From assembly GCA_951406725.2 (NCBI GenBank), contig OX597821.1:114142001-114206000 (forward strand): a DNA stretch of 64,000 nt, read 5' to 3'. The notes under the pieces were generated by a model, which had not been told where the DNA came from, made no database searches, and saw only the letters and a list, made by a program, of their open reading frames with translations. This document shows, one piece after another, positions 10,844-52,295 of the stretch (position 1 is the stretch's first letter; each line of letters begins with the position of its first letter). Position numbers and translations under genes: made by a program. The DNA comes from Octopus vulgaris. Its lineage: Eukaryota.

Positions 10844-11140
10844 ATATCCGTAAAATAATATATGACAATTATACAATAGCCAAGATAAAACTCTGAGTTT
10901 CGGATGCCGAGGTTGAATTCCACAACACCATCTCTTCGGTTATCTGGCCATCTGAAAAACCTTTTGATAGGTCGTTCTATATATCTGTATTTTTTAGATG
11001 GCCAGAAAACCGAAGAGATGGTGTTGTGGAATTCCACCTCGGCATCCGAAACTCAGAGTTTTGTCACATATTTTACGGATAATTTCCTCTATTTATTGAG
11101 GTTTCTTTTTTTCTTTTGTTATCTTACCGTTTTTACCAAT
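10844..11140. mobile_element. Fold-back hammerhead element in (TA)n
   Basis: Inverted arms ~10845-10955 / 10990-11081 plus unique tail; tail homologue at 60712-60777. Confidence 0.8.
10879..10948 (-). ncRNA. Minimal hammerhead ribozyme, U4C core
   Basis: GCCAGAUAA-CCGAAGA-GAUG...CAUC-C-GAAAC-UCAGA-GUU-UUAUCUUGGC. Confidence 0.7.
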
Positions 11141-11180
11141 ATATATATATATATATATATATATATATATATATATATAT

Positions 11181-11615
11181 ATGAAAAAACAAGTCAAAAT
11201 AGAAAATGCTAAAATAATTTTATAAAGAACATTTCAGTACCGGTTTCGGTCATTTTGAGACCTTTTCAACTGTAACGATTAAATAATTAAATTTAGAAAA
11301 ATTAAAAGAAAAGTTTTTTTAAAGGAATATTTGTATAGTGTTCAAATATAAGTGGCATTCTGCCTTTCTCTGTCTCCCTTGTTTGCACTTGTGTGTTCGA
11401 GGCCGTTGTGAATTCTTGGTAGGGTAGAAGAAGAAGAAGGTTGATGAGGAGAGGGCTGGAAAAGTTTGGGAGTGCCTTGATGGTCGTATTTTGAATGGTC
11501 AGTGGCGGCTAGCAGTTGCAGTTCAATTCAGGAGAATATTTCTATTGAAAGGTTTCTTTATGGAATTTGCGTAGGTGTTATACTAAAAAGCATTAGTGAT
11601 AAATCGACTAAAAAT
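11181..11615 (-). mobile_element. Penelope-like 3' fragment with U3-A8 hammerhead (11233-11275)
   Basis: Homologous to the arms of 61255-62137; UUACAG-UUGAAAA-GGUC..GACC-GAAAC-CG-GUA-CUGAAA. Confidence 0.75.
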
Positions 11616-11696
11616 ATTTTTAAAAGTTTTTTTTTACTCCCCTCACACAAGAGTACGTCCAAAAAGTTCAATTCTTAAAACCATGGTAGGTTAGAG

Positions 11697-12077
11697 GAGG
11701 CGCAATGGCCCAGTGGTTAGGGCAGCGGACTCGCGGTCGTACGATAGCGGTTTCGATTCCCAGACCGGGCGTTGTGAGTGTTTATTGAGCGAAAACACCT
11801 AAAGTTCCACGAGGCTCCGACAGGGATGGTGGTGATCCCTGCTGTACTCTTTCACCACAACTTTCTCTCACTCTTACTTCCTGTTTCTGTTGTACCTGTA
11901 TTTCAAAGGGCCGGCTTTGTCACTCTCTGTGTCACGCTGAATATCCCCGAGAACTACGTTAAGGGTACACGTGTCTGTGGAGTGCTCAGCCACTTACATG
12001 TTAATTTCACGAGCAGGCTGTTCCGTTGATCGGATCAACTGGAACCCTCATCGTCGTAACCGACGGCGTGCTTCCAG
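11697..12077 (+). mobile_element. Full-length tRNA-derived SINE family C with 12-bp TSD
   Basis: A box TGGCCCAGTGG, B-box-like GGTTTCGATTCC; TSD GGTAGGTTAGAG at 11685-11696 and 12078-12089. Confidence 0.92.
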
Positions 12078-12097
12078 GGTAGGTTAGAGTCCATGAG

Positions 12098-48182: not shown

Positions 48183-48224
48183 TAGTACACACACACACAC
48201 ACACACACACTCATACAAGGACCA

Positions 48225-48545
48225 ACTCAAAGCATCACCGAAAGTCGCAGGGATTGAGCCTAAATTGTTTGAAACACAAACCCGAGACCGTACCAAGTAG
48301 CGGTGTTCTATCACAATCGGAATCAAGAGCTTCGAAGCCACCAGAAGAGACAAGGAAGAAATCAAACGACAGGAAGGACAGGCTGCGTAAAATCAACCTT
48401 GCCCTCCACCAACATTACCATTCAGTCAAACCATCGACTCGTCTATGCAAGAACTGGTCTTGAGAGCCATCAACGGCATCACCATGAAGGAAGCGTTCAG
48501 CAATGAAGGAGATACATTCTAGGATACAAGCGAATGCCGTCAACG
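48225..48545 (+). mobile_element. RTE-like LINE 3' fragment
   Basis: DQLKASPKVAGI..FETQTRDRTK*RCSITIGIKSFE. Confidence 0.5.
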
Positions 48546-51500
48546 ACGATGGTATGGGATGTATACATACATAGATACATACATACACACATACATGGTG
48601 GCTGCCCCCTCGTTATCGAGTATGGCCATTACACGAAGCTTAATCAATGTTGTTATCGTGCAATGCCTGTGCAAGATTTTTTTTTAAGTGAGGAAAAGCT
48701 GTGCACTGAGTCAATCCCACTCACTAAGCAATAGCAGCCATAATCCGAAAAGAAGAACAAGTCAACATCATCGGTAACCACCGAGCCGCAGGTTTTATGT
48801 CGGAGTTATTCCAGTTATCTGAGTTACCTTCTCCTGAAGGATGCCCAAACAAAGGCTAAGAGTCCTCTACTCCCAATGGTTTAACCACGCGATCGGGTAT
48901 TCAGTCCGATTATTTCTATGTCCCCGCGTATGATACATCCTTAAGACATTTATTGGATGGCCGTTGACTCTCAAGAGTTCCTCCGCCCTTTGATGGGTTT
49001 TGTTTTTCATCCCGCAGGGTGTCCAATAAACACCCTCCTCACCAAGCAAGCTTGGTGGGGTTGCCGGTTTAGTCGCCGACGACCCGACCATGCAACAGGT
49101 TGTACTGGGTTACATGTTACCAGTAGCACTCGAAAGTGACCTGACATGACATACATACATACAAATACATACATACATACAAATATATATATATATATAT
49201 ATATATATATATATATATATATATATATAATGAGTAAAACAGCTAGTTTTAAATCTCTGAATGAGAACACACACATACACATACACACATACACACACGC
49301 ACATATACACACGCATACACACACACACATATATATGCATTGTGATATATGTAAATATTATGCTTTTGTATTTTTGTATATATACAAATGCTGTGTAATC
49401 CTTAAGAATATAATAAATATCCTCATCACTGTTCTCGCCGTTGTTGTTATCTTACGTCCGTTTACCAAACTGGTATGAGTTAGACAAAACTCACCAAAGT
49501 AGTATTCTACGACCAGATGCCTTCCTCACATCTGTCGGCAACCCGCGCATGTTCTTTAAGTAAGATGTTATGCCACTGGTTTTTATGAGTTGAAAACCGC
49601 TGAGCTCAGTAGGAGTATTGCTTACAGATGTAAACATGACGCCACAGGATTACTCAAACGGTGTCATGCGAAAACACAGAAAAAATAAATATTTACTCAT
49701 GTGTGTGTGAGTGTGTGTGTGTGTCTATATTTACATTTTATAGATACTCATAAAGATATATGCTATATAAACATTAAATATACATATATTTATATGTATA
49801 TACCATATAAACATCAAGTGTATATATATATATATATATATATATATATATATATATATATATATATATATACATATATATATATATACATATATATATA
49901 TATATATATATATATATATATATATATACATATATATGTATGTATGTATAAATATATATACATATATATATATAAATGTTTATATATATATTTATATATA
50001 CATGCATACATTCATACATACTCACATGCATACATACACTAATATAAACGGTAAGTATACAGTATACATACATGTATATATATATCCTATATAAATATTA
50101 AGCTTATAATTATATAATTATATAATTATATAAAATAAACTTTTAAAATCAGTACAAATATGTTTAGGATAAATTTAACCTATAAAAAGGCCATTTACCC
50201 TCCTGTTGTAGGATATGTCCCAAACATTTTGACCTATTCTAAAAGTTTGCTTACTTTACTCAACTGCTTTGCGTGCCAACCATGTTTTTTGTTCCCGCCT
50301 GGCAGTCGTAGCACGTCATCAGTGGTTAATTTCTACTGATTTCTTATAAAGAAGCCAAACCTGCCAGTCATTTCAGAATTCAGCTAACACTAATAAGAGG
50401 ATAAAGAGCTCGAAATGCGTATATTAGTTCATAGGGTGCACTCTCCAATAACTGTTACGTTTTACTGTTCCTTTTTGATATCAATACTCCCTTAGAACAT
50501 CGCTAGCTTTCTGCTACAAACTTTGTTTAAAGTGATCTAAATTAATATCTTGCGTCAAAATTTCACGTTAATCAATATTCCAAACACTAACTTAGTAATT
50601 CTTAAGTTATTTTCCAAATTACTTGAAACTAAGGCAGTGTATTTCAACCGAAAAATGGTAACAACGGGGTTAACGTGATCTCAATTAAAACCATATATTC
50701 CAAACATTATTATAACATTGACAAGGTTATTTTACTAAATTCTTCATTACTTTCAAAGTTAATTGGAATAAAGGCATTGAATTCCAACAGAAATATGATA
50801 ACATAAAGGTTAATGCTCTTGAAAATAGAATACTTTTTTATTACGTTCTAGACGGTTGTTTCCGAGGTTTCTACCCACAAAGATCGAAGAAGCCCCGTTC
50901 TCACTCTTTTCTTTCATTACATCCAACAGAACGGAGATTCCTGCTTATCCTAGTGAACAGAAGAAAGTGGTAATAAAAGACAACTGCCATCAAGAATGCC
51001 TTACCATTCCGGAGGCGCTGTTTCGATATGCATCCGTTTCCAGTTCATATATGTTAAATTTTAAAAAAGGAGCTGTAAATTGATAAATTAACCATGATTA
51101 AGATTGATCGGTTTCCATGGCATCCAGAGTATGTTTCTGGAATAGTTTCTGCCAAAAAATTTAACCTGACGAAAAGCAAACCAGAACCTCTGAAATCAGG
51201 CACAAGAGATAACGTCGGGTTTGGAATTAAAACAATAAACAAAGTAACAAAAAAAAAGAACAGAAGAAAATAAGAATGTTGAACAGCTGCAAAATTCAAT
51301 CTGTCTATTTATCAATCTCCCTCTCTCTCTCTCTCTCTCTCTCTCTCTCTCTTCCTCTGTATATATATATATATATATATATATATATATATATATATAT
51401 ATTGTATATACATATATGTATGTATATATATATGTATATACATATATGTATGTATATATATATATATATATGCATACATATATGTATATATATATGTATA

Positions 51501-51558
51501 CATATATACATATGTATGTATATATATATATATATATATATATATATATATATATATA

Positions 51559-52295
51559 CAACAACAATTGAGGAATGGTCTTAATAGGCCATTCGACCCA
51601 CTAGAAAGAGCAGCCAGGACTCAAACCGCCAAGTAGTAGTAATTCAGAAATTAAAGGAAAATTTTAAAACATTTACCCTAATTCATCTTTAGACAATGCA
51701 TTGTTTCGGTGTTTTTAATGGCAAACCAGCTTAATTAAATTAAATTAAGTCAATCCACCAAAGGCTACACCTCATCGGTAAAGAGGCCAGGAGAGACGGA
51801 TATACACGAGGCATCTGTATCTATGCCCTAGGAATATCTGCCCTAAAATCAGCAGTTTATATTTACTGCTGATAAGTTGGCGCGAGTACGATGGTTTTGA
51901 AAATTTTAGGGCAGATATTCCTAGGGCATAGATACAGATGCCTCGTGTATATCCGTCTCTCCTGGCTTCTTTACCGATGAGGTGTAGCCTTTGGTGGATT
52001 GACTTAATTTAATTTAATTAAGCTGGTTTGCCAATTAAAAACACCGAAACAATGCATTGTCTAAAGATGAATTAGGGTAAATGTTTTTAAATTTTCCTTT
52101 AATTTCTGAATTACTACTACTTGGCGGTTTGAGTCCTGGCTGCTCTTTCTAGTGGGTCGAATGGCCTATTAAGGCCATTCCTCAATTGTTGTTGAATTTA
52201 TATATATAGTCTTTGACTATTTTCTCTTTCTCACTAGACCGCTGGTGGCGATAAATTTCTATTGAATTTTTTCCTACCCTATATTGATTAATTAT
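51559..52295. mobile_element. Fold-back hammerhead element (~290-bp arms + ~100-bp tail) in (TA)n
   Basis: Arms 51559-51849 / 51903-52194 nearly identical; tail TAGACCGCTGGT...CTACCCT. Confidence 0.9.
51968..52067 (+). ncRNA. Type-I hammerhead ribozyme, U4C core (mirror copy 51686-51784, minus)
   Basis: UCUUUA-CCGAUGA-GGUGU...ACACC-GAAAC-AAUGCAUU-GUC-UAAAGA; 12-nt palindromic stem III; GUC triplet. Confidence 0.85.

Follow-up and report, generated by a model that had tools for sequence, protein, structure and literature searches.

Hammerhead motifs with a C4 core as a family trait of putative Penelope-like elements and retrozyme-like repeats in Octopus vulgaris

Hydra-clade Penelope-like elements (PLEs) are defined by RWK and DKT motifs, a CxCX5C linker and terminal CxxC/CxH residues in the absence of a CCHH motif, and in Craig 2021 (PMC8557442) they are described with a type I hammerhead motif 3' of an open reading frame (ORF) with a C-terminal endonuclease, insertion into (TA)n targets, inverted arms, a one-sided tail and a palindromic stem III of 8-9 nucleotides (nt). 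The hammerhead core reads CUGA in 25/25 families listed in File S2 of that paper, where the role of the motif in PLEs is called unclear. Animal retrozymes without long terminal repeats (LTRs) are described as non-coding tandem units of ~170-400 nt with one type I hammerhead per unit and structured RNA, likely mobilised by PLEs (PMC7229834; bioRxiv 2026.07.22.740005). Metazoan hammerheads of both kinds whose palindromic stem III is short are believed to act as dimers, and their in vitro cleavage is weak. A 64,000-nt stretch of Octopus vulgaris DNA (GCA_951406725.2, contig OX597821.1, positions 114,142,001 to 114,206,000; the window), which is rich in microsatellites, holds type I hammerhead motifs of four families, named F1 to F4 in window order, in which the core base U4 is replaced by C (C4).

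The same single core change is found in viroid-like RNAs. In peach latent mosaic viroid (PLMVd), a variant with a CCGA core cleaves (Ambros and Flores 1998 as cited in PMC3088659 and PMC9608096), citrus CtaHVd-LR1 is reported to carry a CCGA core, and the zeta virus ZV1 and the betaviroid-like RNA 786 have CCGA cores with both strands cleaved in vitro, according to bioRxiv 2026.09.16.752053. The change is recurrent and compatible with self-cleavage. In these RNA replicons, as described there, CCGA belongs to type III motifs (zeta, betaviroid-like), to minor variants or to one of two strands, whereas in F1 to F4 it is a fixed trait of genomic type I motifs present in thousands of copies. A further parallel is offered by the U3-A8 hammerheads of PLEs (Cervera and de la Pena 2014, PMC4209133), which like C4 are a family-level variant missed by the standard descriptor, but which represent a compensated base-pair swap, while C4 is a single change for which no partner was found. 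No CCGA core was present in the searched supplementary alignment of PMC4209133, whose file 1 lay outside the search, and the literature searched gave no C4 as a retroelement family trait, with Lunse et al. 2017, Arkhipova et al. 2017 and closed preprint supplements outside the coverage.

A structure scan of the window confirmed the four CCGANGA cores pointed out in an earlier note on this DNA and located six type I hammerheads with this core at 10939(-), 13858(-), 42796(-), 42821(+), 51778(-) and 51974(+), together with a seventh at 11010(+), which is the mirror arm of F1 with a damaged stem I (Table 1). The motifs of all four families share the layout of stem I, core, stem II, GAAA, palindromic stem III and UH, featuring a three-way junction of stems I, II and III with A15.1-U16.1 and H17, and the conserved core C3 U4 G5 A6 N7 G8 A9 / G12 A13 A14 is kept in full except for U4. 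Four C4 motifs in the window scored at least 10.5 in the scanner used for shuffling, compared with 0 in each of 100 block shuffles; both F3 motifs and the 11010 arm are under this threshold and not among the four. The stems had been described as otherwise well formed, which holds for the type I anatomy but not for the 11010 stem I or for the closing pair of stem II, G10.1-C11.1, which F4 has, which in F1 is shifted by one base, and which F2 and F3 lack (as does the U4 sister of F3); H17 is also variable, being U in F1 and F2, A in F3 and C in F4. An Rfam search with the four window motifs returned no hammerhead match at E<=10. As the U4 sister of F4 matched Hammerhead_1 at only 22 bits, under the gathering threshold of 34, and the U4 sister of F3 gave no match in the same control, these misses are only partly due to C4.

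Tabulation of position 4 per family gave C4 as the consensus in all four. Outside the window, C4 was found in 37/39 (F1), 29/29 (F2), 36/37 (F3) and 30/31 (F4) copies, taken from the 30 best-matching loci per family as ranked by similarity to C4 queries, a ranking whose bias hid U4 sister subfamilies at first. Across the genome (2.8 Gb, 227 contigs), a pattern allowing 8-38 nt for stem II and 8-9 nt for stem III, controlled by its reversal, matched 16,545 times with C4 (control 1,070; ~15,500 above control), 23,498 times with U4 (control 1,108; ~22,400 above control) and 4,383 times with A4 and G4 together (control 3,197; ~1,200 above control). The first 100 purine matches listed were scattered decayed copies, chance matches and one unrelated repeat, and no purine-4 family turned up in the sampled DNA. 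The CCA pattern expected from C4 decayed at the CpG on the other strand occurred 3,328 times against 1,627 in the control, and since this excess of ~1,700 estimates the C4 copies decayed at CpG, most U4 matches are genuine U4. In an unbiased sample of 80 arbitrary 10-kb stretches (800 kb), the motif scanner found 57 motifs, comprising 25 CTG, 11 TTG (U3-A8), 10 CCG, 1 CAG and 10 others, while the reversed control had 10 motifs in all (1 CTG, 0 CCG, 1 TTG and 0 CAG). C4 makes up 10/35 C3-type motifs in this sample and ~41% under the genome-wide pattern. The possibility that the four window copies arose sporadically by decay within U4 families, which U4 being the textbook base alone favours, is refuted by the counts in outside copies and by the ~15,500 genomic matches, and the rejection of random decay in the earlier note was borne out.

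F1 and F3 are assigned by ORF motifs to the 3' ends of Hydra-clade PLEs. One F1 copy (L177) contains an uninterrupted reverse transcriptase (RT)-endonuclease frame of 717 amino acids (aa), with the motif at both of its ends (hammerheads at 725 and 3312), and the ORF has RWK, DKT, the CxCX5C linker, CxxC and CxH near the C-terminus and is without CCHH. A sister of F3 (L284) has a 507-aa frame upstream of the hammerhead, which is without the N-terminal part and shows an altered linker in the aligned copy. Pfam gave no match for either ORF, and the identification rests on motifs. Insertion into (TA)n, an inverted truncated arm and a one-sided tail were all seen, in agreement with the published PLE layout. 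Moreover, stems I and III of the F3 motif at 42811-42860 match the stems listed for the coral family Hydra-2_aMil (PMC8557442), a striking conservation across phyla, whereas F1 and most F3 subfamilies differ from all listed Hydra families in carrying CCGA, with switches between sisters. The four families had been called unrelated, which agrees with their non-coding DNA scoring at or near shuffle level (for F1 and F3, a local score of 48 against a shuffle maximum of 36) but not with the ORFs behind F1 and F3, which are 43% identical. As claimed, three elements (F1, F3 and F4) carry C4 in both arms; this adds little, because inverted arms are the normal layout of PLEs and C4 in both arms reflects one template. 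Because the two arms of a fold-back copy would base-pair, the window's fold-back copies are probably insertion products without activity.

F2 and F4 are classed from their sequence as retrozyme-like, that is, as tandem units that are non-coding and hold a single type I hammerhead apiece. Genomic copies recur at a spacing of 549 nt (F2) and 474 nt (F4), above the ~170-400 nt described for retrozymes, from which they also differ by the C4 core; no PLE ORF match adjoins the units, and their folds are stable (Table 1). In the window, F2 is made up of one unit plus 73 nt (13612-14233), followed by a 44-nt inverted piece (14234-14277). In sequencing run X11, which comes from another organism and is RNA only by guess, a 579-nt F2 contig circles back onto its own start at 549 and retains C4, with two G>A differences that both lie away from position 4. 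No self-closing F4 contig was found in the two runs guessed to be RNA, and contigs from other organisms aligned to F4 covered the core too thinly for position 4 to be read. A kinship of F2 with the similar-looking family F6 was rejected, as 30/30 F6 copies gave no alignment above chance.

Another PLE family (L191-L220), very young and of high copy number, encodes a CCHH-type endonuclease, with its longest frames reaching 1312 aa. No canonical hammerhead was found in the 1.5-kb flanks retrieved on both sides of the endonuclease; just past the stop (e.g., L217:1870-1930) there is a core-like run with A for C3, a hairpin and GAAA, around which stems I and III were not found. No link of this family to F2 or F4 was detected.

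Sister subfamilies with either base were found for F1, F3 and F4. In the F1 tree, built with position 4 masked, a branch with support 96 holds 82 C4 among 85 rows, while the 24 rows beyond this branch are more diverged and include 22 with U4; of 21 fetched copies with the old F1 signature, 19 had T at position 4 and 2 had C. In the F3 tree, with the same masking, 14 short-branch U4 rows form a group (support 93) nested among C4 subfamilies; they belong to the youngest F3 subfamily and are the ones that bear the ORF. F4 has a U4 sister family with a 484-nt unit, near-identical across copies. As all 25 published Hydra families are U4, this base is likely ancestral, and F1 appears to have switched from U to C, and F3 to have reverted from C to U, according to unrooted trees of 85 and 121 columns whose directions were deduced from divergence and published relatives. 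A metagenome search for Hydra relatives gave three loci, one of them with a hammerhead, which has U4. F5, a further family, and F6 also show both states, F5 with 16 C4, 9 U4 and 0 CCA among 25 fetched copies, which suggests U4 and C4 subfamilies there too. No core position was seen to covary with position 4. Of the convergence proposed earlier, repeated independent switching stands, although F1 and F3 share one PLE clade.

Some observations on these families may be added. The copies of the 484-nt sister of F4 (L341-L370) are 99-100% identical in arrays of up to six, pointing to very recent amplification of a retrozyme-like repeat. F5 is very abundant and has an internal microsatellite, with window copies at 10331-10850 and also at 11848, 23116, 24726, 35620, 37669 and 57675. 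In the youngest F1 subfamily, the stem II region gained 6 nt that are perfectly complementary to the subfamily's C4 core (L177:3312-3360), a pairing that was not dominant on folding.

Whether C4 is tolerated or selected was weighed from fold constraint and mutation rates. Between F4 and its 484-nt sister, stems I, II and III all differ with pairing kept, and stem III in the C4-bearing F4 shows a double A-U to G-C change in 12 copies compared with 1+1 single intermediates, so the fold has been maintained. Private substitutions in young F1 per 1000 site-observations amounted to 1.83 for T>C, 7.36 for CpG C>T, 3.78 for other C>T and 1.62 for A>G. The earlier reasoning that T>C creates a CpG against the usual direction of decay is consequently weak, because CpG C>T is only ~2x non-CpG C>T and ~4x T>C. 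With these rates a free pyrimidine before G is expected to be C at 0.20 (~23% when pooled by hand over five families), and C4 was seen in 8/37 subfamilies (~22%, p=0.84). The raw count in all fetched DNA was 9 C4 and 28 U4, from which one likely false C4 motif (window 9406) was dropped and to which one scanner-missed F3 U4 subfamily was added by hand. These data support that purines are excluded, that both pyrimidines pass and that positive selection is not required; tolerance, in other words, is upheld by the near-background purine counts and the compensatory stem III change in a C4 family, and selected attenuation is not. Both U4A and U4G were reportedly inactive in a PLMVd study, which would fit the exclusion of purines here. 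Another idea considered was that C4 creates a hairpin that sequesters the core, its CC pairing with a GG that opens stem II. Folding 37 family representatives with either base left this unsupported, as natural C4 and U4 families did not differ (p=0.31 and 0.45); an enrichment of GG (7/9 vs 9/28, p=0.024) was noticed post hoc and has one likely false motif among its counts.

The account we favour, with moderate confidence, is that F1 to F4 are the hammerheads of PLE 3' ends and their non-coding tandem derivatives, which are C4 or U4 by subfamily, position 4 being a relaxed, pyrimidine-only site at which C4 probably cuts more slowly and drifts without selection. Read-through or tandem transcripts would fold the motif, probably as a dimer via the palindromic stem III, and the predicted cut after H17 would release unit-length RNA, which in F2 and F4 is likely circularised. 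The PLE RT-endonuclease would then copy the unit RNA into (TA)n, often with an inverted 5'-truncated arm. A master element gaining U4C would keep enough cleavage to transpose and found a C4 subfamily, which in turn could revert to U4 by CpG deamination. We infer that C4 motifs still cut after H17, at a lower rate that would suffice for the release of unit RNA.

Several points weigh against this account. C4 cleavage is predicted from sequence and the RNA side rests on contigs, of which the self-closing one would also arise from tandem DNA or tandem transcripts. U4C is reported to lower activity considerably in vitro, and in a mutational scan of a type III construct every single mutant of the CUGA turn had low activity (PMC9901934), so that true neutrality would be surprising. 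The trees are built on few columns and lack an outgroup, the starred branches alone need no more than one F3 change, many of the old U4 F1 rows were picked from the U4 match list, and the search for U4 sisters took in F1, F3 and F4. The substitution rates are post-insertion genomic rates, and the other four families give equilibria of ~0.17-0.46 from few events. The count of 8/37 comes from C4-enriched loci with singletons included, an enrichment which, if anything, favours the selection reading. It also exceeds the 0/25 of published Hydra hammerheads (Fisher p=0.017), where 14 of the 25 listed are from one species, all were found with a CUGA descriptor and the rows are non-independent; the relaxation to C4 seems to be lineage-specific.

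Selected attenuation, in which slow cutting allows full-length tandem precursors to form or to be reverse-transcribed, or spares circles, and C4 masters are favoured, appears unlikely. The reported loss of activity with U4C, the repeated origin of C4 together with its absence from the 25 published Hydra families, its ~41% share of pattern matches above the ~22% share of subfamilies, and the C4 state of young F1 with its uninterrupted ORFs and of young F2 would all suit it, but the subfamily share equals the mutational expectation, C4 accounts for just 10/35 C3-type motifs in the unbiased 800 kb, and the youngest F3 subfamily as well as the near-identical, heavily tandem sister of F4 carry U4 and amplify well. 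Nor was there a covarying core change or extra C4 misfolding in C4 families (Mann-Whitney p=0.31). Still less probable is that the C4 motifs are dead or irrelevant, the elements spreading without cleavage while the core erodes in the masters. Several motifs indeed also lack G10.1-C11.1 or have U17 or A17, PLE hammerheads are weak in vitro anyway, as are the CUGA-turn mutants mentioned above, and Naiad PLEs are described as amplifying without a canonical hammerhead (PMC8557442). Such erosion is at odds with the restriction of position 4 to pyrimidines at the family level, with the intact rest of the core across diverged C4 subfamilies of F3 and F6, with the reported cleavage of C4 cores in viroid-like RNAs and with the compensatory change in stem III, although the latter might equally come from repair templated by the hairpin.

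If fold-back transcripts underwent A-to-I editing in their antisense arm and were then reverse-transcribed, this might drive T>C, and fold-back structures are common here. Cephalopods are known for heavy RNA editing. This route is nevertheless very improbable, as A>G (1.62) equals T>C (1.83) in young F1 and both are below other C>T (3.78), leaving no editing-type excess; private events in F2 showed a small excess of 14 T>C vs 5 A>G among few events. Relaxed tolerance of both pyrimidines is accordingly preferred to all of these alternatives.

C4 chemistry is already known from viroid-like RNAs, and its occurrence as a fixed and abundant trait of retroelement families appears to be the new part. 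Sisters differing at one core base in both directions provide ready pairs for gauging how much cleavage the elements need. Descriptors fixed on CUGANGA miss ~40% of motifs under one pattern here (10/35 in the unbiased sample), and ribozyme counts and statements that an animal retroelement lacks a hammerhead may therefore err on the low side. More speculatively, the core base could serve as a tuning knob, PLEs and retrozymes repeatedly adopting the slower C4 since delayed cutting aids replication, which we consider doubtful; if true, more than 15,000 ribozymes would be invisible to CUGANGA searches, and the U4/C4 pairs (old vs young F1, the F3 subfamilies, and F4 vs its 484-nt sister) would test the role of cleavage in transposition.

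Table 1. Position and basis of the hammerhead motifs and their putative carrier elements in the window
Feature	Position	Strand	Basis or detail
F1 fold-back stub of 3' pseudo-LTR, putative Hydra-clade PLE, between (TA)n tracts	10857..11135	.	blastn to ORF-bearing copy L177; ORF features; right edge approximate
F1 type I hammerhead, core CCGAAGA	10879..10949	-	C3 10939, C4 10938; predicted cut after U17 at 10889 (from hammerhead numbering)
F1 mirror-arm hammerhead with damaged stem I, core CCGAAGA at 11010	11000..11070	+	
F2 non-coding 549-nt tandem unit, retrozyme-like	13612..14277	-	549-nt copy spacing; blastn; self-closing contig (run X11); fold z -3.55
F2 type I hammerhead, core CCGATGA, C3 at 13858	13796..13868	-	predicted cut after U17 at 13806
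F3 fold-back stub, 3' end of second putative Hydra-clade PLE lineage, one-sided tail	42731..42942	.	blastn to L284; ORF-bearing sister subfamily L281-L284
F3 mirror-arm hammerhead, core CCGACGA at 42796	42757..42806	-	
F3 type I hammerhead, core CCGACGA at 42821, 2-bp stem II, GNRA loop	42811..42860	+	predicted cut after A17 at 42850
F4 non-coding 474-nt tandem-type unit, fold-back arrangement, retrozyme-like	51559..52293	.	arms 51559-52194; fold z -4.57 (L120 unit); 484-nt U4 sister family
F4 mirror-arm hammerhead, core CCGATGA at 51778	51682..51788	-	
F4 type I hammerhead, core CCGATGA at 51974, 12-nt palindromic stem III	51964..52071	+	predicted cut after C17 at 52061
F5 minimal hammerhead, abundant family, U4 in window copy	10688..10727	+	

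Other hammerheads in the window include three with the swapped U3-A8 core (TTGAAAA) at 11269(-), 61350(-) and 62043(+), and canonical U4 motifs of two further families at 31242(-) and about 57808(-). Long near-perfect fold-backs were also seen at 43161-45208 and 61255-62138, with arms of 95-100% identity. In addition, two ORF fragments are located at 6462-6950(+) and 52425-53093(-), which appear to resemble a mariner-type transposase and a long interspersed nuclear element (LINE) reverse transcriptase, respectively.

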